Made by a program: the position numbers and the translations under genes
In this document: piece by piece, positions 1 to 36,508 of the stretch
Numbering within the stretch: the first letter of the stretch is position 1
Layout of the letters: each line of letters starts with the position of its first letter
IMG/VR virus record: IMGVR_UViG_2563366960_000009
Location: 1-37,772 of that record
Strand: one strand, 5' to 3'
Source of the DNA: a virus
Lineage: Duplodnaviria; Heunggongvirae; Uroviricota; Caudoviricetes
Length of the DNA stretch: 37,772 nt
Notes under the pieces: model-generated
What the model was told of the DNA's origin: nothing
Databases searched by the model: none
Seen by the model: only the letters and a program-made list of their open reading frames with translations

Positions 1-1005
1 TTAATCCCCCGTGGACACTGCGTGGACACTCACGCCACCTTTCAGCGGATTAAGGGCCACCGCATCCTGCAGGTAATCCGGTGCAAAATGTGCATATGCC
101 ATTGTTTGCTGAATGGTTGCGTGACCAAGAATCTTCTGAAGTGCAATAATGTTTCCTCCGTTCATCACAAAATGGCTGGCGAACGTATGCCGCAGCACAT
201 GTGCAGCCTGGCCTTTTGGCAAATCGGGCTTAACTCTTTTCAGCGCCAGACAGAATTCCCGGTACTTCACCTCAAACAAGCTCCCTGTTTCTCTGGTTCT
301 GATCGCCTCACAAACCGCCTGCGAAATTGGCACCGTTCTCTTCCGGCCATTTTTGGTTTCAAGAAACGTTACACGGTTATGAACTATCTGTTCACCACGA
401 AGCTTACAAGCTTCACTCCAGCGCGCCCCTGTGCTTAAACACAAAAGCGCAACACGCCAGTAGTCGCCCTCCAGTGTATCGAGCAATAGCGCTACTTCCT
501 TCTGGGACAGGAAAGCCATCTCTCGTGGGGATACATAAAGAATAGAAATCCCCCTTACCGGATGCTCTGCATCCCAGAGGCCTATTTTCTTCAGTACGGT
601 AAACATTCCGGATAACCGATTCATGTATCTGTTAGCAGATGACGGTTTCAATCCATCAGCTATCTTTTGAGAACGCCACGCGATAATTTTCAGCTTATCA
701 AGATCCACAGCCTGCATATCAGCGCCAAGCTCATTGATTATGTTGCGCAGTTGTTTTCGGTCTTCTTCCGCCTTACGCCTGTGCTGGCCGTGATACATCC
801 ACCACAACTCAAGCAAATCATTTAGCGTTCGACGATCACGGTAGCCCTGTATATATTCCCGCTTTTCAGCGTTCGCCATGATGTAGCGTTCAGTGGCCAC
901 CGCTACCGATTTTTTGTCAAATACCTTACGCACGCGCTTTCCCTTGCGTCCGTTCGGCCTGATGTCCAGCAAATAACGACCATCTTCGAGCTTCTTAATC
1001 GACAT
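1..1005 (-). CDS. int: Phage integrase, tyrosine recombinase (P2 Int-like)
   Basis: ORF 1..1020 on the minus strand; the first codon in the track is a non-ATG start, so the ATG at 1005 is preferred (MSIKKLEDGRY...). C-terminal LRHTFASH...GHATIQQTMAYAH resembles the tyrosine-recombinase catalytic region. Position at the prophage end next to the repressor matches P2 organisation. Confidence 0.9.
   Translation of the reverse strand: MSIKKLEDGRYLLDIRPNGRKGKRVRKVFDKKSVAVATERYIMANAEKREYIQGYRDRRTLNDLLELWWMYHGQHRRKAEEDRKQLRNIINELGADMQAVDLDKLKIIAWRSQKIADGLKPSSANRYMNRLSGMFTVLKKIGLWDAEHPVRGISILYVSPREMAFLSQKEVALLLDTLEGDYWRVALLCLSTGARWSEACKLRGEQIVHNRVTFLETKNGRKRTVPISQAVCEAIRTRETGSLFEVKYREFCLALKRVKPDLPKGQAAHVLRHTFASHFVMNGGNIIALQKILGHATIQQTMAYAHFAPDYLQDAVALNPLKGGVSVHAVSTGD
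11..29. repeat. Putative attL core: gtggacactgcgtggacac, direct-repeat partner of 36592..36610
   Basis: A 19-bp sequence recurs at 36592..36610 with one mismatch (14 bp perfect, cactgcgtggacac). It overlaps the 3' end of int, as is common for att cores. Confidence 0.5.
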
Positions 1006-1101
1006 TGCGAAGCCCTCCAATGAACCGCTCTACAATTTCTCCAGCCTCTTTCCAGCAATAATCAGACCAGACAAAAAGCAGGTCTAACCAGTTTTCTGGC
1101 C

Positions 1102-1689
1102 TCAGCGGGGTAATTTTTGTTTTGTTTCGGTTGAACTCTGATCGCCCTCCAAACTGGAGAAGCCATCAAGAGAGAGAGGCGGAGCAATCTGCCCCGTCGC
1201 AGCATTAGTTTGATTAAACATTACCCAATCCGAATACTTCCGAAAACGGGGATGATTCAAAATCAGGAGTAGCGTTTCTCCAGGTATCATTCTTCCCAAT
1301 ATTTCATAATTTTTGAGATTGTTTTGAGATACCCCTGTCACCTCTTCCATCGCTCTACGCGACAATCCCTCTGCCTCTCGAATCAGGCGGAGTTTTTCTC
1401 CAAGCTCAGATACCACTTCAGATCCACTACCAGCCAATGGCGTGGGTTCAATTTGCCCATTATCTGGAGACACTTGCCCCGTCATAAGCCAAAGCGCGTA
1501 TTTTTTGAACCTATCAACCTGTAAAACTCGCTCAACCAACTCTGCTCTAGCAGGCTGATGACCTGTTTCATATTTCTGAATAGTATTAAGTGGAATCCCT
1601 GTAATATCAGAGAATTGACGTCTGCTTAACTCTTCCGCCTCCCTCATTCTCATGAGTCTTTGCGAATAGTCTATTGACACGTTTCTCAT
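1102..1689 (-). CDS. Immunity repressor (CI/C-like) with two tandem XRE-type helix-turn-helix segments
   Basis: Two similar segments, LSRRQFSDITGIPLNTIQKYETG and LSRRAMEEVTGVSQNNLKNYEILG, look like HTH motifs. ATG at 1689 has an AGGAG ribosome-binding site upstream; the track's 1737 start is a TTG. Divergent from the cox-like gene. Confidence 0.7.
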   Translation of the reverse strand: MRNVSIDYSQRLMRMREAEELSRRQFSDITGIPLNTIQKYETGHQPARAELVERVLQVDRFKKYALWLMTGQVSPDNGQIEPTPLAGSGSEVVSELGEKLRLIREAEGLSRRAMEEVTGVSQNNLKNYEILGRMIPGETLLLILNHPRFRKYSDWVMFNQTNAATGQIAPPLSLDGFSSLEGDQSSTETKQKLPR

Positions 1690-1741
1690 GTGAGAAATAT
1701 ACTCCTTTCTAAATTGAGAAATGCAAGAACAACTCAAATAG

Positions 1742-4649: not shown

Positions 4650-4853
4650 ATGAACAAAAAGACCTGGTTTCGCGCATACATGTGGGCGCTGGTATGCGTC
4701 CTCGTCTCTCTCATTCTGTATGCAGGACTACTCCCCCGAATGATTTCATCAGACAGCTCCTTCCTGGTATTGCTGGGAATTTTCATTGCCATGCTGTACC
4801 CGGCAGGCGTTGTTCGCCTTTTCAGTAAGTACATCAAGGAAATCAAACAATGA
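4650..4853 (+). CDS. Small two-helix membrane protein, partner of the SPFH lipoprotein
   Basis: 67 aa with two hydrophobic helices (WALVCVLVSLILYAGLL and FLVLLGIFIAMLYPAGVV); stop overlaps the ATG of the next gene (ATGA). Confidence 0.55.
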   Translation: MNKKTWFRAYMWALVCVLVSLILYAGLLPRMISSDSSFLVLLGIFIAMLYPAGVVRLFSKYIKEIKQ

Positions 4854-5680
4854 AGAAATTCAAACTCTTTCAGATTCTCCCGCTTTTTGCCGCCATCCTG
4901 CTGGTTGGTTGCGATCGCGTTGAGCCAGGTAATGTGGGCATCAAAGTCAACAAACTGGGCGACGACAAAGGCGTCGGTGAAGTGGTTGGCGTTGGCCGCT
5001 ACTGGACAGGCTGGAATACAGAGGTTTACATCTTCCCGACCTTCAAACAAATGAAGACTTACGATGAGCCGTTCAACTTCCAGATGAGTGACGGCACAAC
5101 CATCGGCTATCACATCGGCGTGGCCTACAAAGTTGATCCATCCAAAGTTACCACGGTGTTTCAGACCTACCGCAAAGGCGTGGACGACATTACCGACACT
5201 GACCTGCGCCAGAAGATCGCCGATGCACTCAACCGACTGGCCAGCAAAATGACCACCGATAAGTTTATCGACGGTGGTAAGTCTGAACTGCTGGATTCAG
5301 CACTTAAAGATATTCAGGAAGAGATGACCCCCATCGGTATTCAGGTCATGAGCCTCTCTTATGTCGGTAAACCGGAATATCCGCCAACCGTTATCGACAG
5401 CATTAACGCCAAAGTCACGGCAAACCAGAAAACCCTGCAACGCGAACAGGAAGTCAAGCAACGCGAAGCAGAAGCCAACATGTTGCGCGCAGAAGCTGCC
5501 GGACAGGCCGATGCCATTCGCACAAAAGCCCAGGCTGAAGCCGACGCCATTCGTTTACGCGGCGAAGCTCTGCGCCAGAATCCCGGTGTTATGGAGCTGG
5601 AAGCGATCAACAAATGGAACGGCACGCTGCCGCAATACATGACCAGTAACACCGCTGTTCCGTTCGTTCCCGTGAAGTAA
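4850..5680 (+). CDS. SPFH/band-7 (prohibitin/stomatin-like) lipoprotein
   Basis: 276 aa. N-terminal signal peptide with lipobox LLVGC. C-terminal Ala/Glu/Arg/Gln-rich coiled-coil (QREQEVKQREAEANMLRAEAAGQADAIRTKAQAEADAIRLRGEALRQNP) typical of SPFH proteins. Confidence 0.7.
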   Translation: MKKFKLFQILPLFAAILLVGCDRVEPGNVGIKVNKLGDDKGVGEVVGVGRYWTGWNTEVYIFPTFKQMKTYDEPFNFQMSDGTTIGYHIGVAYKVDPSKVTTVFQTYRKGVDDITDTDLRQKIADALNRLASKMTTDKFIDGGKSELLDSALKDIQEEMTPIGIQVMSLSYVGKPEYPPTVIDSINAKVTANQKTLQREQEVKQREAEANMLRAEAAGQADAIRTKAQAEADAIRLRGEALRQNPGVMELEAINKWNGTLPQYMTSNTAVPFVPVK

Positions 5681-6047: not shown

Positions 6048-6278
6048 ATGGCAAACAGCAAACAGCACCGCGCTATCGCGGAGCGTCGCCACATCCAGAC
6101 TGAAATCGACCGCAGACTCACCCGCGCTGCACACATCGCCTTTATCATGCAATCCAACGCATTGCACAGGCTCAACAGTACTATTTCAGCCGACTACTGC
6201 GCCGCTGTATTCAGCTATCTGGCGGAAGACCTCCTGTCTCTTCAGGATCTCATCCAGCAGCAAAACAAACTCCATTAA
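6048..6278 (+). CDS. Hypothetical protein upstream of the replication gene
   Basis: 76-aa ORF with ATG start. Confidence 0.4.
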   Translation: MANSKQHRAIAERRHIQTEIDRRLTRAAHIAFIMQSNALHRLNSTISADYCAAVFSYLAEDLLSLQDLIQQQNKLH

Positions 6279-6722: not shown

Positions 6723-9545
6723 ATGACGACAGAGTACATCAGGGACTGGCAACAACCGCGCCACACAGTAGGACGTGAAGGAACGGAGATCCCCGCACCT
6801 GAATCCGCACTTTCCTCCTGGCTGGATGCCTACCGGGCAGAGAACGAACGCCGCCAGGAAATGGCTGATGCGGCGTTCTCCGCCACACCGCTGGGCAACC
6901 TGATTAATAAAAGCCTGGACGCACAGGAAAAACAGGACAAAACCATCACACTGGCCAGAGAAGCCAGAAAACAGGCACGCGGCGCGGTGGATGAAGCCAT
7001 GGCCTCGCTGCGCCTGCTGCCATCCTATCTGCGCGATCCGCTTATTCGCCACCTCTCCTTCCTGCGCAAAAAACAGGAAGCCGATCGCCGGAAAGGCAAA
7101 AAGAGCTGGCAGGCGGAACGCTATGCACGCGGAACCCTGCGCAAAATATTCGAACGTCTGGATCGCACTGACGGACGCTGGCTGACACCGGGTTATCGCT
7201 CCCTTGCCGGACGCGAACGCCTGGACGATTTGCTTTACCTGCCGCAGCTCAACAAACACCAGATACAGACGCTGGCCACCATGACGGCGGCGATGTTCAG
7301 CAGCACCTTCGAAAAACTCTGCGATGGCTTTGGCGCGACCGATGGCGAACTGACCATGGATGTAACGCTGAAGGCGTATCAGATGCTGGCCCGCATGGCG
7401 TTACACCTGCACATCATGCCTCCACATTATGACGCACTGACAACAGATAAAGACCGGAGGAACGAACCGGACACGGAGCTGCTGCCGGGCGCAATCCTTC
7501 GCCTGACCTGTGCTGAATGGTGGAAACGCAAACTGTGGCTGTTACGTTGCGAGTGGAGAGAAGAACAACTCCGCGCCGCCTGTCTGGTTTCCAGAAAAAC
7601 ATCGCCCTATCTGAGCCAGGACGCATTAAGCGAGTTTCGCGCACAGCGCGAGAAAACACGCGATTTCCTGAAAAGTTTCATGCTGGAAAACGAAGACGGG
7701 TTCACGATTGATCTCGAGACAGTGTATTACGCGGGAGTAAGTAACCCGGTTCACCGTAAGGCAGAAATGATGGCCACCATGAAGGGGCTGGAACTTCTGG
7801 CCGAAGCCCGTGGCGACAGAGCGGTGTTTCTGACTGTCACCTGCCCGTCAAAATACCATGCCACAACAGAGAACGGTCATCCGAATCCCAAATGGAACGG
7901 GGCCACCATGCGCGACTCCAGCGATTACCTGGTTAACACGTTTTTTGCAGCGGTCCGCAAAAAACTGAACCGCGACGGCCTTCGTTGGTATGGCATCCGC
8001 ACGGTGGAGCCTCACCATGACGGCACTGTGCACTGGCATATGATGGTCTTTGCTCATCCGGAAGAAATCGACAGCATCGTGGCCATCACCCGCGATATTG
8101 CCATTCAGGAAGACCGCCACGAGCTGGGCGATGACATAACTCCGCGTTTTAAAGCGGAGTACGTCGACGGCTCAAAAGGCACGCCAACCAGCTACATCGC
8201 CACCTACATCGGAAAAAACCTGAGCAGCCGCGCCGTGGATGGTATCGACCCAAAAACGGGCAAGCCACGCGTTGACCATGAAACCGGAAAATCAATGGCC
8301 GAGAGCGTGGAGCGCGCTATCGGCTGGGCACGCCTTCACCGGGTCCGCCAGTTCCAGTTCTTTGGCATCCCCTCCCGTCAGGTGTGGCGTGAACTGCGCC
8401 GCCTTGCCAGCCAGATGGCACGCAACCCGGAAGGCCCGCAACGGCTGAAGGATGACGCAATGGATGCGGTTCTTGCTGCCGCTGATGCCGGATGTTTTGC
8501 CACCTACATAGAGAAACAGGGCGGCGTTCTTGTTCCACGCAAAGACTACCTGATTCGCACCGCCTACGACCTCGCAGATGAGCTGAACGATTACGGCGAA
8601 CAGAGCGTACAGATTTACGGGATCTGGTCGCCACTCATCGGGGAATCCTCCCGTGTGTGCACGCATCCGGATAACTGGAAGCTGGTAAGACGTAAACCGG
8701 AAACGGAAGACAGCGCCCGCGAAAATGGTTTTGACCTTCAGGGCGGCCCTGCCGCCCCTTGGACTCGTGGCAATAACTGTCCCCGTGTACAGGAAACGGA
8801 CAACAACGGGACAGAACAGCCGGAAGAACGGCCAGCACCGTGGCCGCAGCTTCCTGACAGCGTTGATGTGGATGAATGGATGCGCTCACTGAAACGGCAC
8901 GAACGCCGGGCGCTGATGCGTTCGCTGCGTGACAAACAGGCAAAAAACAGCAGTGATGAAATGCAGAACTGGACACAGAGCCGCAAACAGCCACAGCCTT
9001 TGCCTGATAACCACGAGTTACTCGCTAAAGAATGGCGGGAGTCTGCTGAATCTCTCGGCCTGCATATCGGTGAACAGCAGATGCAGCACCTGTTACGGGG
9101 CGGCAGCCTGTACGTTGACGGCAGCATCATTGCACCGCAGGGATATGAAATTGTACGTAAACCGGATACCCGCCCGGACAGCCGAATCACGCAGCTCTGG
9201 CAACGCCTGAGCCGTAACCACGGCGTAAGCAGCACGGAGATCCGCCATAACCCGGTCGCCAGCTATCTGGAACAACTAGGGGCATCAGACCCTGAAGCCG
9301 CCGCACGCCTGGCATCCACACTTCAGCAAGACCAGAACACCATGAAAACACCCGTTACCGTACTTTCTGACATGCTGCGCGCCATCCGCGACGCAGAGCA
9401 CGAACAGAGAATCAGTGAAACAACTGAACGCGCCCGCCGCAAAGCAGACCTGCTGCGGGGTGGCCTGACCAGTGGAAACAAAAAACAGACAAAAACGGGA
9501 TTCACAAATCCCGTAAATGAGCAAAAAACGCGCCGCGATATATGA
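6723..9545 (+). CDS. Replication initiation endonuclease (P2 gpA-like rolling-circle initiator), with a long C-terminal extension
   Basis: 940 aa. HUH-like motif TVHWHMMVF and paired tyrosines in SYIATYIGKN match the P2 A family. Longer than P2 A as I recall it (about 760 aa). Confidence 0.85.
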   Translation: MTTEYIRDWQQPRHTVGREGTEIPAPESALSSWLDAYRAENERRQEMADAAFSATPLGNLINKSLDAQEKQDKTITLAREARKQARGAVDEAMASLRLLPSYLRDPLIRHLSFLRKKQEADRRKGKKSWQAERYARGTLRKIFERLDRTDGRWLTPGYRSLAGRERLDDLLYLPQLNKHQIQTLATMTAAMFSSTFEKLCDGFGATDGELTMDVTLKAYQMLARMALHLHIMPPHYDALTTDKDRRNEPDTELLPGAILRLTCAEWWKRKLWLLRCEWREEQLRAACLVSRKTSPYLSQDALSEFRAQREKTRDFLKSFMLENEDGFTIDLETVYYAGVSNPVHRKAEMMATMKGLELLAEARGDRAVFLTVTCPSKYHATTENGHPNPKWNGATMRDSSDYLVNTFFAAVRKKLNRDGLRWYGIRTVEPHHDGTVHWHMMVFAHPEEIDSIVAITRDIAIQEDRHELGDDITPRFKAEYVDGSKGTPTSYIATYIGKNLSSRAVDGIDPKTGKPRVDHETGKSMAESVERAIGWARLHRVRQFQFFGIPSRQVWRELRRLASQMARNPEGPQRLKDDAMDAVLAAADAGCFATYIEKQGGVLVPRKDYLIRTAYDLADELNDYGEQSVQIYGIWSPLIGESSRVCTHPDNWKLVRRKPETEDSARENGFDLQGGPAAPWTRGNNCPRVQETDNNGTEQPEERPAPWPQLPDSVDVDEWMRSLKRHERRALMRSLRDKQAKNSSDEMQNWTQSRKQPQPLPDNHELLAKEWRESAESLGLHIGEQQMQHLLRGGSLYVDGSIIAPQGYEIVRKPDTRPDSRITQLWQRLSRNHGVSSTEIRHNPVASYLEQLGASDPEAAARLASTLQQDQNTMKTPVTVLSDMLRAIRDAEHEQRISETTERARRKADLLRGGLTSGNKKQTKTGFTNPVNEQKTRRDI

Positions 9546-9600
9546 AGCGCGCACAAAACAGGCAAAAACGGGATTTCAGAATCCTGTAACCGATTAATTA
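9470..9600. repeat. Iteron-like array; candidate parC centromere and/or origin-associated repeats
   Basis: Two about 28-bp direct repeats (9489..9516 acaaaaacgggattcacaaatcccgtaa; 9562..9589 gcaaaaacgggatttcagaatcctgtaa), each with an internal inverted repeat (CGGGATT/AATCCCG), plus further CAAAAAC motifs. They span the 3' end of A and the region just upstream of the parM-like gene. Confidence 0.5.
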
Positions 9601-9621
9601 ATCAACATAAGGAAAAGCGAC

Positions 9622-10581
9622 ATGAAAATTTGTATCGACGACGGCTCCACCAACATCAAGCTGGCATGGACTGAGAACGGCGAACACCGCAACGCCATCA
9701 GCCCGAACAGCTTCAAGTCGGAATGGTCTGCGCCGTTCGGTGGCTCGCAGCCTGCGAACTACATGCTTGATGGCGTGCGCTATGGTTTTGATCCGGTCAG
9801 CGATCGCTTTGTCCAGACGACCGACACGCAATACCAGTACAGCGATGTGAATGTAATCGCCATTCACCACGCGCTGGTCAAATCAGGCATCACGCCACAG
9901 GAGGTGGATGTGGTTGTCACCCTGCCACTGAGCGAGTATTTCGACACAAACGCCCAGCCGGATATGACCAACATCAACCGCAAAAAAGCGAACGTTATGC
10001 GCCCGGTGGAGTATCAGAACAGTGAGGCATTCACTATCCGTAACGTGCGGGTTATGCCTGAATCCATTCCGGCTGGCTTTAAAGCACTGGCTGACATGAG
10101 TCCGTTTGAATCCCTGCTGATTGTGGATTTGGGCGGAACCACGCTGGATGTGGCAAAGGTTCAGGGGCAACTGGCAGGTATCAGCCAGGTGTTTTGCGAT
10201 CCACACGTAGGCGTTTCTCTGATGGCCGATGCCGTGCTGTCGGTGATGGCCACCAACGGTATGCGCACCAGTCACCACATCGCCAATACCATTATCGAAC
10301 ATCGCCACGATGAAGCCTGGCTGCGCCAGCACATCCACAATGACGCGCATTACGCCAGCCTGATGGCAGTTATTCGTGAAAAGGAGGAAACACTGAAACA
10401 ACGCGTGATCCGCGCGCTGGCGGGTTTTTCGGGTTACGGGCGGGTGATGGTTGTAGGTGGAGGAGCGGAGATTGTGGCACCCGCTATCCGCGAAGCCTGC
10501 GGAGTTAATGCGACTTTCATCGCGGACGGGGTGCCACAATTTGCTCTGGTTAATGGGCTGTACGCAATGGACAAGGAGTAA
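9622..10581 (+). CDS. parM: ParM/StbA-like actin-family partition ATPase
   Basis: 319 aa. N-terminus MKICIDDGSTNIKLAW closely resembles plasmid R1 ParM (..FIDDGSTNIKLQW, from memory); later LLIVDLGGTTLDV and VMVVGGGAEIV match actin-fold phosphate-binding motifs. Confidence 0.8.
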   Translation: MKICIDDGSTNIKLAWTENGEHRNAISPNSFKSEWSAPFGGSQPANYMLDGVRYGFDPVSDRFVQTTDTQYQYSDVNVIAIHHALVKSGITPQEVDVVVTLPLSEYFDTNAQPDMTNINRKKANVMRPVEYQNSEAFTIRNVRVMPESIPAGFKALADMSPFESLLIVDLGGTTLDVAKVQGQLAGISQVFCDPHVGVSLMADAVLSVMATNGMRTSHHIANTIIEHRHDEAWLRQHIHNDAHYASLMAVIREKEETLKQRVIRALAGFSGYGRVMVVGGGAEIVAPAIREACGVNATFIADGVPQFALVNGLYAMDKE

Positions 10582-10585
10582 ATCA

Positions 10586-10897
10586 ATGACGACACCAACC
10601 AGACGGATAAGTTTCTATCTGAAGCCCGCCGCCGTCAAGAACGAAGGTGAAGCATGCGCCTGGCTGGACAGCCTTACACCAGAAGCGCGCAAAAGCGGCC
10701 AACGCGTGGCTTTTCTGGCCGGGCTGGCACTTCTGAAAATGAATCCGGCAGAGGCTTACCGACTGGCTGCATGGGCTGATGATGAAGCGTTATCAGTGAC
10801 ACAAACCAGGACAGAACGCCCCGCGTCACAGCCAGTATCAACCGCACAGATAACCAGTCAGATGGCCGGAAATATCCGGGCGTTATTTCCCGAATAA
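10586..10897 (+). CDS. parR: ParR-like centromere-binding adaptor
   Basis: 103 aa directly after parM. RRISFYLKP...LDSLTPEARKSGQRVAFLAGLALL and the C-terminal NIRALFPE align by eye with R1 ParR (RRTIAFKLNP...LDSIPQGERSRLNRAALTAGLALY...LRSLFPKE, from memory). Confidence 0.7.
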   Translation: MTTPTRRISFYLKPAAVKNEGEACAWLDSLTPEARKSGQRVAFLAGLALLKMNPAEAYRLAAWADDEALSVTQTRTERPASQPVSTAQITSQMAGNIRALFPE

Positions 10898-10902
10898 CAC
10901 AA

Positions 10903-10926
10903 CATCAGGGCGCATCCGCCCTGATG
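10903..10926. promoter_or_regulatory. Perfect 10-bp inverted repeat (catcagggcg-catc-cgccctgatg) between parR and the ClpX-finger gene
   Basis: Read directly; no T-tract follows, so it is more likely an operator or processing site than an intrinsic terminator. Confidence 0.35.
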
Positions 10927-10960
10927 ACTTTAACCCGGGAACATAAACAAGGGGGACACA

Positions 10961-11296
10961 ATGCAACGCATTGACAGAGAAAAAGCGCAGCGACTGATTG
11001 AGCGGATGGAAGCGCTGGCGAAAGAAGAAAATGTCAACATCCAAAAAATAGCTGAATGTGGCCAGATAGTTCTTCGTCGTGAAAAAGACCTCAAACAACT
11101 GATGTCTGGCGAAACCAGCAAAACATGGACTTCAGGTGAGGAGACGATTTATTGCAGCTTCTGCAATAAATCCCAGTACGAAGTCACAAAGGTGATTGCC
11201 GGACCGTCTGTTTACATCTGCAATGAGTGCGTTGATTTGTGCAATGAAGTTATCAGGAGAGAAGTGACAGACCATGAAGAAAAAACGCATGAATGA
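10961..11296 (+). CDS. Small protein carrying a ClpX-type N-terminal C4 zinc-binding domain and no AAA+ module
   Basis: 111 aa. Residues about 64-100, [35 protein letters not shown], closely match the ClpX zinc-binding domain consensus (CxxC...CxxC). N-terminal half is a predicted helical region. Confidence 0.7.
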
Positions 11297-11462
11297 CGAA
11301 TTTGACGGCTTTTAATTTTATCGGGGCGCACTGTCGCCCTGCATGGAGAAAAACAATAAAAAAGATGAATAACTGCTCATGTCAGACGCGCTGCGGGCAA
11401 GTCTGGCACCCTGCCCTGTCTCCGCAAAGGCTGTTGTCTTAACACGACAGAGTATGCCAGCA

Positions 11463-11870
11463 TTAAATATAATCTTCTTCGTAGTCGCTGATTAATTCAT
11501 TGCCATAATCAGACAGCAATTTCAAAGCAAAGGTAACTTCCTCAAGGGTAGCTATCCCCATTGCTGAAAACACCGTTAATTTAACCAGCAGCAGGGAGTT
11601 TGAAAGTTCGGAAGAGTTCATCATTAAAAATATTGATGCAGCCTGAAAAGCTGTGCGTTTATTCCCATCATGAAAGGCATGAGCCTTGGCTATACCAATC
11701 AAATACATAGCAGCCAGAGCATGAATATCATCAACCCCTTCATAGTAGTGTAGTGTCCTGACGCGATTTAAAGCACCTTCAAGTAGCCCGTCATTGGCAT
11801 TTCCGCTCTGGGGTAAAGTTTCAGCATGGATACGTTCTACTTGTTCTTTTGACAAAAACACTATGTCCAT
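11463..11870 (-). CDS. doc: Doc-family (Fic fold) toxin
   Basis: 135 aa with the Doc motif HAFHDGNKRTA (HxFx[DN]GNKR); start overlaps the stop of the upstream antitoxin (ATGA). Confidence 0.8.
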   Translation of the reverse strand: MDIVFLSKEQVERIHAETLPQSGNANDGLLEGALNRVRTLHYYEGVDDIHALAAMYLIGIAKAHAFHDGNKRTAFQAASIFLMMNSSELSNSLLLVKLTVFSAMGIATLEEVTFALKLLSDYGNELISDYEEDYI

Positions 11871-12226
11871 CAGTTATCCTCAAGCTTTTTAATGATATCC
11901 GCATGTTTTTCTCTTGTACGCTTCATTGCATCTTCAAAAGACAATCCTTTTTTTCTCTGTGCGACAAGAGCTGGATGACGTTTTTCCAGATCTCTCACTG
12001 CATTTATTAAGAGTGGTTGCTTCATTTTGTTTATTTGATCCCGCAGTTTTTTGGTTTTGCCAAGGACAGCCCGTATTTCAGGACTAAGATCAGAACCAGC
12101 AAGAACAACATCCTTCCCTCCCTGCGCCGTGATAACGACACTGCCACCGGAAGAAAGGTAATCCAGAATTTCACTCAGGTTCTCACGAAATTCATCATCA
12201 GTTACAGTTTTCATATTCATTTCCAT
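11870..12226 (-). CDS. phd: Phd/YefM-like antitoxin
   Basis: 118 aa immediately upstream of and translationally coupled to doc; N-terminal region is consistent with a Phd/YefM fold. Confidence 0.65.
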   Translation of the reverse strand: MEMNMKTVTDDEFRENLSEILDYLSSGGSVVITAQGGKDVVLAGSDLSPEIRAVLGKTKKLRDQINKMKQPLLINAVRDLEKRHPALVAQRKKGLSFEDAMKRTREKHADIIKKLEDN

Positions 12227-12750: not shown

Positions 12751-13797
12751 TCAGGATGTGGGCTGGGTGTCTAACAGTGCGTAAGGGTTAAAGCGGATCA
12801 CCTCTTCGCCAAGCCAGTCATTGATGTGCTTTATGGCCTCCATGACAGGCATCAGCTCGTTAATTGCGTAAACCCGCGCGGCCTTCTCCACATCGCCAAA
12901 CGCACTTTTTTCGCCCGGCATCGCCCCCATCAGTTGCGGCGGAACGCGGTGCGCAGCCAGCACATCATCACGGGATGCCGCCTTAACATTCATGAACTCA
13001 TCCTTTGCGGTGATCTGATGGAACGGCAAAATTTGCACCCCCTCTTTGCCCCCGTTGGGCGCATGGATGAGCACGTTTTTAAACGCACCACCACCACGCG
13101 CACCCTGTAACGTTTCTTTCAGGGAGTCCATGCTTTCGCGGTTTACCTGCGCTGCACCGATGTAGATGATGCACCCGGCGTGGGATCCATTGTCGTAATA
13201 CAGTTTTCTGAACATGTCCGCCGAATGAGACAGGCTGGCCGAGAGTAATGCGCCAAGATATTCCGGCATGCCGTAAATTTCCTGGTTAATGTCCGGATTC
13301 ATCAGGTGGCACACTTTGCCAGGGCGAAACTGAAACGCGTCCTTGCCATCCTGCACATACCACCATGATTCAAGATCGCTTCCGCGTCGCATGTATTTCG
13401 CCAGTGCGTGCCGTAATTTAAGTGGTTCGCCGAGCATATTGCTCCGAAGCTCAAGGAATGCGTTACCGAACACAAACCAGTCCAGCGCCAGCGCCGAGAA
13501 ATCCTGCCGGGAAAGCAGCGGGTGCGGGATGTAGCAACCGAGCAATACATTGCGCTTAAAGTAAAGCGCAGACTGATGCCAGGACGTTTGCCGGGCAGCT
13601 CTTGCCAGACCGTACCAGTCCACCGGGGTTTCATACCACCGCCCGTTATCAGCACAGTACATATTGTCCAGCAGGTCATGCCCGGTCAGGCGATAAGGAC
13701 CATCAAATGTGAATGCACTGAGCGATGATTCTTTCCTGAGCGCATCAGCGAGATCAATGCGTGAACTCATGCGCACTTTTTTATTTTTTCTGCTCAT
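12751..13797 (-). CDS. Portal protein (P2 gpQ-like)
   Basis: 348 aa (P2 Q is about 344 aa); leftward with P as in P2; ATGA overlap with P. Confidence 0.85.
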   Translation of the reverse strand: MSRKNKKVRMSSRIDLADALRKESSLSAFTFDGPYRLTGHDLLDNMYCADNGRWYETPVDWYGLARAARQTSWHQSALYFKRNVLLGCYIPHPLLSRQDFSALALDWFVFGNAFLELRSNMLGEPLKLRHALAKYMRRGSDLESWWYVQDGKDAFQFRPGKVCHLMNPDINQEIYGMPEYLGALLSASLSHSADMFRKLYYDNGSHAGCIIYIGAAQVNRESMDSLKETLQGARGGGAFKNVLIHAPNGGKEGVQILPFHQITAKDEFMNVKAASRDDVLAAHRVPPQLMGAMPGEKSAFGDVEKAARVYAINELMPVMEAIKHINDWLGEEVIRFNPYALLDTQPTS

Positions 13798-15548
13798 CAG
13801 AACTCCATAACCGTGAAACGCTCGTTTTCTCCTTCGCCGCCAATCGGTTCGTTAATGACAGCAAGCATGGTTGCCCACGCAAGGTCGCCGTGGCTGATCC
13901 CCCTCGCACGGTCCGTTTCGTAAGTGATAAAGCCGCCCGGTGTTTTCACCTTACGCACGGCGTTAAAGGCCGCGACCAGCTCGCGTTCGGCGCGATCGTA
14001 TTCCCACCGCCCGGCACGCATTATTTGCAGCATTTTCAGTACCAGCGACCGTTTTGATGACAGCGTGAAGGTGTACGGAATAGCAGCAGGGAAAAACCGT
14101 TTCACTATCTGATAAACAGCCTCCCCGTTCCCGCCCGTCACATCAATGCCGATGTGTTCCACGTTGTAGCGATACGTGAACTCTTCAATGACTCTGGCCT
14201 GTTCTTCAAACTCCAGCCCCTGAACGCGTCGCGTCTCCACCGTTCGAAAACGGCCACCAGGAACAGCCGGAGGAACCACCACGGACACAGCGCCGCTGTC
14301 GCCGTTTCCACTGCTGCCGTTTGCGTCATACCCAATCCATACCGGACGATTCCCCATCGGGCGGGGAGCAAAAGGTTTCCAGTCTTTCCAGTCGTCGTAT
14401 CCGTCAACACCGCAGCCAATCAGGATATTCAGGTTAAATGCCGATTCCCCTTCGCGGACAAATTCACACATATAGAGATTGCGGAACTCGTCTTCGGTGT
14501 TTTCATCACGAATTTCGTCGATATCGGTGTGTTTCCAGCCGTGATTAACCACATCTTCCAGCGTGACAATTTGCCGCCACGTCCGGTCAGGGCAGATAAG
14601 CCCGTTATGCAGCGTTTTCCAGTCCACAGAAAAACGCTGGCGTTTATGCGAGGCCTTTTTCTCGTTCCAGCGGTCACCGTTCCAGTAGGCGTATGCCTCG
14701 TGCGTTTCGGTGGATGGCGTGGAGAAGTAGGTGCGCCGCAGTCCGCTGAGGGTTGCCATAGCGCCAGCCACCTTGCGCAGTTCAGCAAAGCGACTGACCC
14801 AGAAGAATTCATCAAAATAAAAATTGCCCGTATAGGACTGTGCCGACGCAGCAGAAGTGCCGAGAAAATGCAGCTCTGCGCCGTTGGAGAGGATGATTTT
14901 ATCGCCCCCTTTCAGCTCCACATCAACTTCAGCCGCGGCCTTCTGAATAATGCTTTTAAACTGGAACGCCTGACGACGCGACGCAGACAAAAAAATCTGG
15001 TTACGCTGGTAAGGTTGCGCCACATCGTCACGCAGCGCCATCAGCAGTGCTTCCTGTGCAAAATACCAGGTCGCCCCAATCTGTCGGGATTTCAGGATCA
15101 TCCTGTTACGTATCCCGGCTTCCCTGCAAAGGGTCAGGGAGTCAAACCAGCCCCGCTGATGCCACTCCAGCCTGCTGATGATTTTTTCCCGCAGTGCGGC
15201 AATCTGTTCCGGCGTGAAATGATTTTTGAGTTTTTTCGCCCGGCCTTTCTTTCCTGTGGCCGTCGCATCCGGCTGGCCATCATGCAGTTTTTTAAGCTGC
15301 CGGGTCAGCAGGTCTATTTCCTTGAAGTCACCACCTGTTTTATTCTGTTTTTCAGTGAGCTGGATGAGGCGCGCATCGATGGACTGCGTGACACGCTGCA
15401 CGGGTGGTGTTTCATCCCACTGGTCGCGTTTTTTCCACGCATAAATCGTGTTCGGGTTTATTCCCATCAGACGTGATATTTCTGCGGGCGGATAACCCTG
15501 CCAGTAAAGTTGTCGCGCACGCTGGCGCACAAAAGCGTCCTGAATCAT
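13797..15548 (-). CDS. Terminase large subunit / ATPase (P2 gpP-like)
   Basis: 583 aa, divergent from the scaffold gene; size and position match P2 P. Confidence 0.85.
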   Translation of the reverse strand: MIQDAFVRQRARQLYWQGYPPAEISRLMGINPNTIYAWKKRDQWDETPPVQRVTQSIDARLIQLTEKQNKTGGDFKEIDLLTRQLKKLHDGQPDATATGKKGRAKKLKNHFTPEQIAALREKIISRLEWHQRGWFDSLTLCREAGIRNRMILKSRQIGATWYFAQEALLMALRDDVAQPYQRNQIFLSASRRQAFQFKSIIQKAAAEVDVELKGGDKIILSNGAELHFLGTSAASAQSYTGNFYFDEFFWVSRFAELRKVAGAMATLSGLRRTYFSTPSTETHEAYAYWNGDRWNEKKASHKRQRFSVDWKTLHNGLICPDRTWRQIVTLEDVVNHGWKHTDIDEIRDENTEDEFRNLYMCEFVREGESAFNLNILIGCGVDGYDDWKDWKPFAPRPMGNRPVWIGYDANGSSGNGDSGAVSVVVPPAVPGGRFRTVETRRVQGLEFEEQARVIEEFTYRYNVEHIGIDVTGGNGEAVYQIVKRFFPAAIPYTFTLSSKRSLVLKMLQIMRAGRWEYDRAERELVAAFNAVRKVKTPGGFITYETDRARGISHGDLAWATMLAVINEPIGGEGENERFTVMEF

Positions 15549-34771: not shown

Positions 34772-34957
34772 ATGTGGAAAGGCCCCGAGTCAACTTTAAC
34801 GTTAACCCGAGGCCCTAACCATCTACCCTTAGCAAGTGATAGGTTAGCGCCTCCCCGAAAAAGGAGCAAGCGCTATGTCGCAAAAATCGCTTACGGCCAT
34901 CACATTCTGCGTGACGGCAATCCTCATCATCTGGATGCTGCACGGTTCGCTGTGTGA
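34772..34957 (+). CDS. Possible mok-like overlapping reading frame of a hok-type locus
   Basis: 61-aa ORF starting about 100 bp upstream of the hok-like ATG and overlapping it in a different frame, as in hok/mok/sok loci. The protein itself has no recognisable features. Confidence 0.3.
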   Translation: MWKGPESTLTLTRGPNHLPLASDRLAPPRKRSKRYVAKIAYGHHILRDGNPHHLDAARFAV

Positions 34958-35015
34958 AATACGGATGAGCTTCTGGGGAGCGGAGTTTGCGGCGTTCTTA
35001 CAGTGTAAGCAGTAA
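34875..35015 (+). CDS. Hok/Gef-family type I toxin peptide
   Basis: 46 aa, below the ORF-track cutoff: MSQKSLTAITFCVTAILIIWMLHGSLCEIRMSFWGAEFAAFLQCKQ. N-terminal TM helix and the SLCEIR...AAF signature shared with Hok; AAGGAG site upstream. Confidence 0.6.
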   Translation: MSQKSLTAITFCVTAILIIWMLHGSLCEIRMSFWGAEFAAFLQCKQ

Positions 35016-35024
35016 GGAAACCGC

Positions 35025-35277: not shown

Positions 35278-35610
35278 ATGGCATTAATCAAATGTCCTGA
35301 ATGCCAGAAAGAGGTGAGCGATTCAGCATTGTATTGCCCTGCTTGTGGTAAACAACTGCAAAAACTTAAGCGTTCATTTTTTGGACGGATCATTAAGTGG
35401 GTTTTTATATTATTTAATATTTTTATGATCTATACGCTTTTAGTTGGACTAGGAGGCACTAGTGAAATAATAAATAATGCCACATCCGATGCCGAAAAAG
35501 CCGGTGCAGTTATTGGTACAGGCTTAGGTTTAATTACCATTGGAAGCTTATGGGTTATTGGCGATATCATTATCGGAATTTTAGTATTTCTTACTAAACC
35601 AAAGGGATAA
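35278..35610 (+). CDS. Zinc-ribbon membrane protein (N-terminal CxxC-x10-CxxC, two transmembrane helices)
   Basis: 110 aa; CPECQKEVSDSALYCPACG then two long hydrophobic helices; AAGGAGG site; markedly AT-rich codon usage. Confidence 0.7.
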   Translation: MALIKCPECQKEVSDSALYCPACGKQLQKLKRSFFGRIIKWVFILFNIFMIYTLLVGLGGTSEIINNATSDAEKAGAVIGTGLGLITIGSLWVIGDIIIGILVFLTKPKG

Positions 35611-35614
35611 TAAA

Positions 35615-36508
35615 ATGAAAAATATAATTTTTTCTATAGGTGCATCATTTATATCAATTAGTGTACTGCCTGTTCACGCAGCAACTGAACATAAGAACTT
35701 CAATGCAGTACTCCAGTGCCGAGCAATAGAAAATAATAAAGACAGACTTTCTTGTTACGATAAGTCAATACAACCGACTCGAACGAAAGTTGCTGAAAAA
35801 TTCGAAAGCAGAGATCAATGCCCTGATGAGAAAGATGATGATAGACGTTTATCTTGTTATGATCGTTTCTTTTCTCCAACATTTACTCCATCTGTAAACT
35901 CAAAATCTAAAACGGAAAAGCCAGTAACAACAGAGGCTCAGCAACCAAATCTTTCTGAGATATCTAAATGTCGTGCAGAAAATGATAAAGAAGCCAGACT
36001 AAACTGCTACGATAAACTATTCCCACAGGATAAAATCGCTCAAGCTGAATCAAAATTAGAGAAAGCCACAGATGTAGGAAAATGGCACACATCCATTACT
36101 ACATCGCCAATTGATGATTCGAAAAATGTAATTTTATCGTTAGAAAGTGATGATTATATCAGAACTCCATTTGGAGAAGCGGTTACTCCTACTCTTTTTA
36201 TAGCTTGCCGAGAAAAGAAAACCGAAGTATTTCTTAGTTGGGATGTATATTTAGGCCTTGAACAAACCAGCATGCTTTATCGCCTTGATAAACAGAAAGC
36301 AGTTGAGCGAAACTGGCTAGTATCTACAGATACAAAGGCTGTTTTTTATAAAGGTAATGACATTGATTTCATCCGAAAACTAGCCAACTCAAGCAAAATG
36401 TATACAAAAATAACGCCTTATAATGAGAGCCCCGTAAGTGCAACTTTCAATTTAAACGGCCTGTCAAACGCGCTAAAACCGCTTCAAGCTGCTTGTAACT
36501 GGAAATAG
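35615..36508 (+). CDS. Secreted protein with three Cys-pair repeats and an uncharacterised C-terminal domain
   Basis: 297 aa; signal peptide ending VHA; repeats CRAIENNKDRLSCYDK, CPDEKDDDRRLSCYDR, CRAENDKEARLNCYDK; AT-rich; 4 bp downstream of the zinc-ribbon gene. Confidence 0.7.
   Translation: MKNIIFSIGASFISISVLPVHAATEHKNFNAVLQCRAIENNKDRLSCYDKSIQPTRTKVAEKFESRDQCPDEKDDDRRLSCYDRFFSPTFTPSVNSKSKTEKPVTTEAQQPNLSEISKCRAENDKEARLNCYDKLFPQDKIAQAESKLEKATDVGKWHTSITTSPIDDSKNVILSLESDDYIRTPFGEAVTPTLFIACREKKTEVFLSWDVYLGLEQTSMLYRLDKQKAVERNWLVSTDTKAVFYKGNDIDFIRKLANSSKMYTKITPYNESPVSATFNLNGLSNALKPLQAACNWK

Follow-up and report, generated by a model that had tools for sequence, protein, structure and literature searches.

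A ParMRC-type partition cassette adjoining the replication gene of P88-like prophages of Escherichia coli and its possible action on transient phage circles

The DNA analysed here is the IMG/VR virus record IMGVR_UViG_2563366960_000009, taken over its full length of 37,772 nucleotides (nt) and referred to as the window, whose ends fall on gene boundaries. According to Pfam matches and the annotation of open reading frames (ORFs), it holds a P2-type prophage with a tyrosine integrase, Cox, the replication protein gpA, a portal and other P2-type genes. An initial annotation had placed an R1-type (type II) ParM/ParR partition pair at 9470-10897 of this integrase-carrying, P2-like prophage. The gene pair proved to be real and correctly delimited, with Pfam matches for both proteins and a match to R1 ParM at E 5e-92, and the setting was confirmed by the integrase, Cox, gpA and portal genes of a copy that adjoins the host gene flk. 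We regard a working ParMRC-type machine at this locus as strongly supported. The locus and its immediate borders comprise the following features, where aa stands for amino acids:

6723-9545, plus strand: gene A, encoding the 940-aa gpA, a rolling-circle initiator of the HUH type (Pfam Phage_GPA 2.1e-130, aa 179-501)
9470-9603: whole candidate centromere parC, with boxes 1-3 and phased A-tracts
9479-9516, plus strand: parC repeat 1, 38 nt, an A-tract leader and palindromic box 1 CGGGATTCACAAATCCCG (9496-9513), inside the gpA coding sequence
9552-9589, plus strand: parC repeat 2, 38 nt, an A-tract leader and palindromic box 2 CGGGATTTCAGAATCCTG (9569-9586), intergenic
9592-9603, plus strand: box 3, perfect 12-bp palindrome GATTAATTAATC, 19-30 nt upstream of the parM ATG
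9622-10581, plus strand: parM, 319 aa, segregation ATPase of the actin-like type (Pfam StbA_N and C-terminal ParM domains)
10586-10897, plus strand: parR, putative centromere-binding adaptor, 103 aa (Pfam PF10784, Plasmid_stab_B, ParR/StbB family, 1.6e-24)
10903-10926: 10-bp perfect inverted repeat CATCAGGGCG/CGCCCTGATG, directly 3′ of the parR stop, where the conserved block ends and the variable hotspot begins

ParM matches both of its Pfam domains at full length, StbA_N at 6.6e-82 and the ParM C-terminal domain at 1.2e-68. The alignment with the solved R1 ParM (1mwk) covers residues 2-316, with 46% identity across 317 aligned columns, and the motifs DDGSTNIK, MPESIPAG, DLGGTTLD and GGGAE are identical or conservatively replaced in it. 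We take DDGSTN to be the phosphate 1 motif, DLGGTT the phosphate 2 motif and GGGA the adenosine motif, which together with MPES presumably form the nucleotide-binding and hydrolysis set. Identity is 52% to the ParM of the plasmid pEL60 (incompatibility group L/M, IncL/M) and 47.5% to StbA of the phage-plasmid D6. Among 50,697 phage records, R1-type ParM is found only in 14 P88-like records and in D6. Related loci were collected from IMG/VR (the best 80 of 248 matches) and from species-representative genomes (three loci), to which phage P88 and one plasmid record were added. The ParM ORF is intact, at 319 aa, in 81/81 loci scored, and its ratio of nonsynonymous to synonymous substitution rates (dN/dS) is 0.053, showing that ParM is under strong purifying selection.

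The parR gene starts with an ATG 4 nt past the parM stop. A longer ORF with a GTG start at 10457, present in the program-made ORF list, overlaps parM and was discarded as not being the parR gene. The N-terminal 60-65 residues of ParR align by hhalign with the ParR of pEL60 (97% probability) and with that of D6 (85%). A search against solved structures returned no sequence match at E ≤ 1, and tblastn against 72,556 plasmids found matches only in records that themselves bear a P88-like prophage. As judged from these searches, homology to plasmid ParRs is detectable only at the profile level. The alignment to both R1 proteins that had been proposed as a check was hence obtained for one of them: ParM aligns readily, while ParR, though it matches PF10784, finds none of the solved chains by sequence. 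An AlphaFold2 monomer model, built on a 17-sequence alignment, reached a predicted local distance difference test score (pLDDT) of 56, with helices at residues 20-29 and 32-52 that fit a ribbon-helix-helix (RHH) fold and an N-terminal strand that was left unmodelled. The RHH fold of ParR proteins normally requires a dimer. Across the related loci, the segment RRISFYLKP near the N-terminus and the C-terminal NIxxxFP are invariant, in alleles which are only 52-58% identical overall. The selection acting on ParR is similarly modular, with a dN/dS of 0.13 for the N-terminal part, 0.58 for a hypervariable linker and 0.045 for the C-terminal tail. Conserved ends joined by a variable linker fit the pattern expected of a DNA-binding adaptor with a ParM-docking tail.

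The candidate centromere extends beyond gene A, with repeat 1 inside the final 67 nt of the gene and with repeat 2 and box 3 in the 76-nt spacer between A and parM. The two 38-nt repeats are 82% identical and lie 73 nt apart, start to start. An "iteron array" overlapping the 3′ end of A had been described; the repeats are real and the first does lie inside the gene, but the term array overstates what amounts to two repeats or two to three palindromes. The 18-bp palindrome CGGGATT-N4-AATCCYG has two sites in the whole window, a count reached in 0/100 shuffles, and its core GATT-N4-AATC occurs three times in the window, always in 9499-9603 and within 105 bp upstream of parM. Box 3 is a candidate ParR operator across the 5′ region of parM. 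Boxes 1 and 2 were found in 83/84 related loci, with a spacing of 73 ± 1 bp in 80/80 two-site loci scored. Box 1 stands at -125 from the parM ATG in the loci listed, and box 2 is fixed at -52/-51. The arms of these boxes are conserved and their central N4 varies across loci, and box 3 is nearly invariant in a 59-sequence alignment. Five A4-6 tracts have their 3′ ends at 9485, 9495, 9528, 9558 and 9568, spaced by 10, 33, 30 and 10 nt in a phase of ~10.5 bp. This cluster is the most strongly phased of the window (rank 1/7530 among 131-nt windows on both strands; reached by 5/20,000 shuffles), hence intrinsically curved DNA is predicted, as expected of a centromere wrapped by ParR. One related locus (IMGVR_UViG_2657245439_000011, L019 in our numbering) carries a single hybrid palindrome in place of the two and also has an altered gpA C-terminus; its single box fits a deletion through recombination between the 38-nt repeats.

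The order gpA-parC-parM-parR is kept in all of the ~84 related loci. Across them, identity is 97-99% for ParM, 81-98% for gpA (full-length matches) and 52-100% for ParR, and falls to 30% for the portal. Between parR and the portal gene (Q) lie 995 to 4174 nt, with differing cargo. The pair had been assigned to the A-to-Q variable hotspot, and the gpA-gpQ hotspot itself has been described (Rousset 2022, PMC9122126). Since parMR is fixed in position in all loci and variation starts after parR, the pair is better seen as a constant extension of the replication gene on its right-hand side than as hotspot cargo. The C-terminal tail of gpA, ~140 residues long (aa ~800-940, 9120-9545), occurs, among the phage records searched, only in the 14 P88-like records that carry ParM, and the region before the tail is common to Fels-2, SEN8 and Klebsiella P2-like phages. 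The gpA tail, parC and parMR may have been gained or may have evolved as a single unit. In ten loci (L013, L020, L023, L038, L050, L053, L067, L069, L072 and L085), ParM is 98-99% identical and the portal only ~30% identical to those of the window; here the replication-partition module is joined to a different head module.

Past the hairpin at 10903-10926, a 111-aa protein (10961-11296, plus strand) combines an N-terminal region of ~60 aa with a stand-alone zf-C4_ClpX domain (Pfam 3.1e-17), with no AAA+ module. In the window and in roughly one-fifth of the related loci, its gene directly follows parR, and the protein is annotated as "carboxylate-amine ligase" in P88. It could mimic or titrate the substrate- and adaptor-binding domain of ClpX. 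Further into the hotspot, at 11463-12226 on the minus strand, lie genes for a Doc/Fic toxin of 135 aa and for a Phd/YefM-like antitoxin of 118 aa that falls slightly short of the Pfam cut-off; the two are shared by 2 of the ~84 loci. PADLOC gave no match for ParM, ParR or the zinc-finger protein, and only weak Fic-domain matches for the Doc toxin. A likeness of the pair to the old/tin-type defence cargo that this hotspot carries in P2-like phages thus found no support, and a defence-system reading of the cassette was dropped on the absence of PADLOC matches.

The following rows give the wider frame of the prophage:

1-1020, minus strand: tyrosine integrase, a P2-type prophage gene
1802-2089: Cox, a P2-type prophage gene
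12751-13797, minus strand: portal, a P2-type prophage gene
13797-15548, minus strand: ORF, counterpart of the P88 large terminase by comparison with P88
36777-37772: flk, host gene and last in the window, matched in 5426/5426 complete E. coli genomes

Because the window terminates in flk, a host gene present in every complete E. coli genome searched, the present copy is integrated in the chromosome. Region 9400-11300 shares 96.8% nucleotide identity with Escherichia phage P88 (Peduoviridae, Xuanwuvirus), and the element is a chromosomally integrated, P88-like Xuanwuvirus prophage of E. coli. The published 14-mer attP of P88, GCCACCCGAAGGTG, is absent from the 37.8-kb window, and the integration site, next to flk, differs from that of P88.

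The 1428-nt locus is present in 1307 of the 5426 complete E. coli genomes (~24%), and 1453/1455 copies are chromosomal. Its genes already bear the names "plasmid segregation protein ParM" and "plasmid partitioning/stability family protein" in PGAP/RefSeq. The pair is accordingly no new oddity; it was discussed in print by Pfeifer 2021 (PMC7969092) and Rousset 2022 (PMC9122126), and the cassette has already been annotated and interpreted alike, so that the observation is not new. In PLSDB, at least 90% identity is reached by 7 records: one phage-sized circle, one linear fragment ridden with insertion sequences (IS), and otherwise replicons of 0.23-1.4 Mb. The circle (NZ_CP148288.1, L002, pZ1323PEC0009-2) is a complete P88-like genome of 34,461 bp, entered as a circular plasmid of an E. 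coli strain isolated from a cat, and carries integrase, Cox, gpA and parMR. It shows that a free circular form can exist, and may represent a genuine episome or else phage DNA replicating after spontaneous induction. The linear fragment, a 26.7-kb "plasmid" record of Shigella boydii, proved to be an IS-ridden contig and was rejected as evidence for an episome. With respect to the autonomous extrachromosomal state that defines a phage-plasmid, what was found is a flk-adjacent copy in the window, a chromosomal location in all but two of the E. coli copies, and the circular 34.5-kb record as the sole exception. The sole replication gene identified in the element is gpA; no plasmid-type replicon turned up, although no search was aimed at replicons. 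In the scan of species-representative genomes, 3 loci only were found, in E. albertii, in Salmonella and in an assembly labelled "Vagococcus". The latter (L086, NZ_JBQPOM010000071.1, 'Vagococcus sp.') assigns a P88-like ParM locus of 97% identity to a Gram-positive genus and is most likely a contamination or a mislabelled assembly.

No match to the sigma-70 consensus was found in 9300-9700, nor any between A and parM, and no plus-strand terminator was predicted between the two genes. Type II systems have a ParR-autoregulated promoter embedded in parC; here a weak TTTCAG-17-ATTAAT, overlapping boxes 2 and 3, could be picked out by eye. The hairpin at 10903-10926 is terminator-like on the minus strand only. 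With a 76-nt gap that contains neither a terminator nor a consensus promoter, and with parC overlapping the end of A, co-transcription of A and parMR is the simplest reading. The lack of a consensus promoter in parC argues for such co-transcription with gene A and not against partition activity.

Several known systems resemble the cassette in part. The same locus, in the same gpA-parM-parR order, is found, among other Xuanwuvirus prophages, in P88 (NC_026014, gp17/gp18), PhiSM, P884B11 and 520873, and the pair is labelled "plasmid segregation protein ParM" and "partition protein" in P88. Only the cargo past parR differs from P88, with the ClpX-type zinc-finger gene and Doc/Phd here, and the zinc-finger protein and small hypothetical ORFs there. 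P88 was induced by mitomycin C out of an integrated prophage (PMC5285337), and the gene was listed as a "fitness" factor in the PhiSM paper (PMC6456863).

The R1 ParMRC system (1mwk, 4a62) shares the full-length ParM at 46% identity with its motifs, the order parC-parM-parR and a small ParR adaptor. It differs in that the ParR described here is too diverged for a sequence match to the solved chains, in that the host replicon here is an integrative phage, and in the site: R1 parC consists of about ten direct 11-bp iterons flanking the promoter, whereas two to three palindromes with A-tracts and no clear internal promoter are found here. The closest plasmid relatives are parM and parR of pEL60, with a ParM at 52% identity and an alignable ParR N-terminal domain. 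However, pEL60 has T-rich direct repeats upstream of parM and no such palindromes, and its ParR is 147 aa long against 103 aa here. StbA/StbB of D6, a P1-like phage-plasmid, likewise combine an R1-type ParM (47.5%) with a ParR-like gene downstream, but D6, at 91 kb, exists as an obligate plasmid prophage and the present element integrates.

The best functional analogue is srpMRC of the integrative and conjugative elements (ICEs) SXT/R391, a type II partition system in a normally integrated element, which is expressed only upon activation and stabilises the excised, rolling-circle-replicating ICE (PMC4489591). It is unlike the present cassette in that SrpM is distant from R1 ParM, SrpR is without a recognisable domain and the element is conjugative and not a phage. 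Moreover, srpMRC shares its operon with int, and the cassette described here adjoins the replication initiator instead. In the Corynebacterium prophage CGP3, the early-induced AlpAC system links circular phage DNA to filaments and is needed for efficient replication of the excised DNA (PMC4446434). AlpAC/alpS is similar to the present system in that an integrated prophage supplies both a protein that forms actin-like filaments and an adaptor that binds DNA. It belongs to another actin-like lineage and a Gram-positive host, has the adaptor gene first, and is likened here by description and not by sequence.

We favour, at a probability of roughly 0.55, a functional ParMRC system, fixed in the P88-like replication module, that would act transiently, once infection or excision has yielded extrachromosomal circles replicated by gpA, on these circles. 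In such a mechanism, ParR dimers would bind the palindromic boxes in a curved parC straddling the end of gene A, and the C-terminal tail of ParR would capture the ends of ATP-dependent ParM filaments, whose growth would drive parC-bearing DNA molecules apart. The cassette would be transcribed with the early Cox-B-A operon and, as a consequence, would be active only on the extrachromosomal, gpA-replicating circle, that is after infection and before integration, or after excision or derepression. Phage circles would thereby be distributed or positioned, so that they are not lost at cell division or are replicated efficiently. Long-term plasmid lysogeny would not be the primary role, and the chromosomal location of nearly all copies argues against routine plasmid lysogeny. 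More tentatively, gpA with its lineage-specific tail, parC and ParMR may be regarded as a phage replication module, in which the filaments would separate or position rolling-circle monomers and so control the efficiency of lysogenisation or productive replication, and would not serve plasmid maintenance.

Several points weigh against action on transient circles. A segregation benefit is not obvious in a lytic cycle that kills the cell. The proposed binding of ParR to the boxes is read from their symmetry, position and conservation, and that conservation is barely above background because the related loci are close relatives, the IMG/VR sample being biased towards such relatives as the best 80 of the matches. 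The layout of two to three palindromes is also unlike characterised parC sites with many direct iterons, and the low-confidence monomer model leaves the predicted RHH fold of ParR unconfirmed. A simple consensus scan may miss a weak or ParR-regulated promoter, in which case expression in lysogens would be possible. Lastly, no functional study of, or experiment on, the cassette was found in the literature.

Plasmid-like or episomal maintenance was suggested earlier (Pfeifer 2021, PMC7969092; Rousset 2022, PMC9122126), and the literature's reading is that of a facultative phage-plasmid, in which the entire phage could forgo integration and be kept by ParMRC as a plasmid prophage, stable and at low copy number. 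The circle pZ1323PEC0009-2, deposited as a plasmid, speaks for it, as does the finding that, among the records searched, an R1-type ParM outside the P88-like group occurs in the plasmid prophage D6 alone. Nevertheless, 1453/1455 E. coli copies are chromosomal, one phage-sized circle stands among the 7 PLSDB records and could itself be replicative DNA of spontaneous induction, gpA is an early lytic rolling-circle initiator and the only replication gene identified, and the integrase is kept in all copies, so that we consider this reading unlikely. Episomal maintenance after excision, as initially proposed, is reasonable in a transient form, given the precedents of srpMRC and AlpAC, and stable plasmid carriage looks rare. 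It is less probable still that the cassette acts from the integrated prophage, through incompatibility with, or exclusion of, incoming relatives or plasmids that share its centromere, or in the segregation of a region of the host chromosome. The parC-proximal palindromes do overlap the 5′ region of parM as in an autoregulated, constitutive par operon, the locus adjoins a defence and toxin-antitoxin hotspot (Doc/Phd, 11463-12226), and the division of ParR into divergent allele classes (52-58% identity), next to a ParM that hardly varies, could reflect diversifying interactions. However, neither the boxes nor the N-terminus of ParR, which would read the DNA, differ between allele classes, and nothing points to a diversified specificity; tblastn uncovered no relatives of ParR on true plasmids, leaving no obvious plasmid target; and both PADLOC, for ParM and ParR, and the consensus promoter scan came back empty.

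The repeats might instead not be a centromere at all but intrinsic terminators, made of hairpins with minus-strand T-runs, or RNA or origin-related structures, with ParR binding elsewhere or not at all. The sequence 9514-9495 on the minus strand does score as terminator-like, and T-rich tracts follow both palindromes on that strand. The repeats also lie at the end of gpA, and the P2 replication origin is located inside the A gene; a search with the P2 ori nick sequence gave no match at ≤3 mismatches. Such a role is made highly improbable by the site itself, which stands just upstream of parM with a fixed 73-bp (seven-turn) spacing and phased A-tracts, as predicted for a centromere wrapped by ParR. 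In addition, no minus-strand gene or promoter lies upstream, convergent units are already parted by the hairpin at 10903-10926, box 3 has the same core without a T-run, and variants in the arms (GGGAC.../...ATCCC) break pairing, indicating that the hairpin is not strictly conserved. We give scarcely any credence to a decaying relic of past recombination with a plasmid, devoid of present function. The nearest relatives of ParM are indeed plasmid ParMs (1646 PLSDB records at 60-80% nucleotide identity), but decay is not what is seen in 81/81 intact ParM ORFs, a dN/dS of 0.05 for ParM and of 0.13 and 0.045 for the functional parts of ParR, and an architecture kept in 1307 E. coli genomes.

Elsewhere in the prophage, the position of the immunity repressor is taken by an ORF at 1102-1737 (minus strand) of 211 aa with two helix-turn-helix domains, while the C protein of P88 has ~93 aa (P88 1170-1451); the ORF may represent another immunity type or may have been called too long. 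The early region also encodes an SPFH/Band-7 family protein (3.1e-31; 4850-5680, plus strand), as well as a small ORF (6048-6278, plus strand) that matches the "Derepression protein" family below threshold and whose P88 counterpart is annotated as a derepression protein. At the other end, between a phage Hok/Gef gene (about 34876-35016) and the host flk, genes for a zinc-ribbon membrane protein and for a VasI/TagO-like protein of the type VI secretion system (35278-36508, plus strand) are probably moron cargo at the end proximal to the attachment site.

What is added here to the published annotations is the anatomy of a candidate centromere, the modular selection on ParR, the placement of the cassette as an extension of the replication module and not as cargo, and the argument for a transient role from the state of the genomes. 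About 1 in 4 complete E. coli genomes carry the cassette in a chromosomal prophage, under strong purifying selection. If the cassette acts on transient circles, the idea of partition in brief extrachromosomal phases, drawn from srpMRC and AlpAC, would extend to very common enterobacterial phages and would bear on how efficiently lysogens form and on the stability and curing of prophages. If it is a part of the replication module, it would be a counterpart of the CGP3 AlpAC system in tailed phages of Gram-negative bacteria, present in approximately a quarter of E. coli genomes. Should plasmid lysogeny be real after all, the P88-like phages would constitute a widespread phage-plasmid able to switch between both lifestyles.

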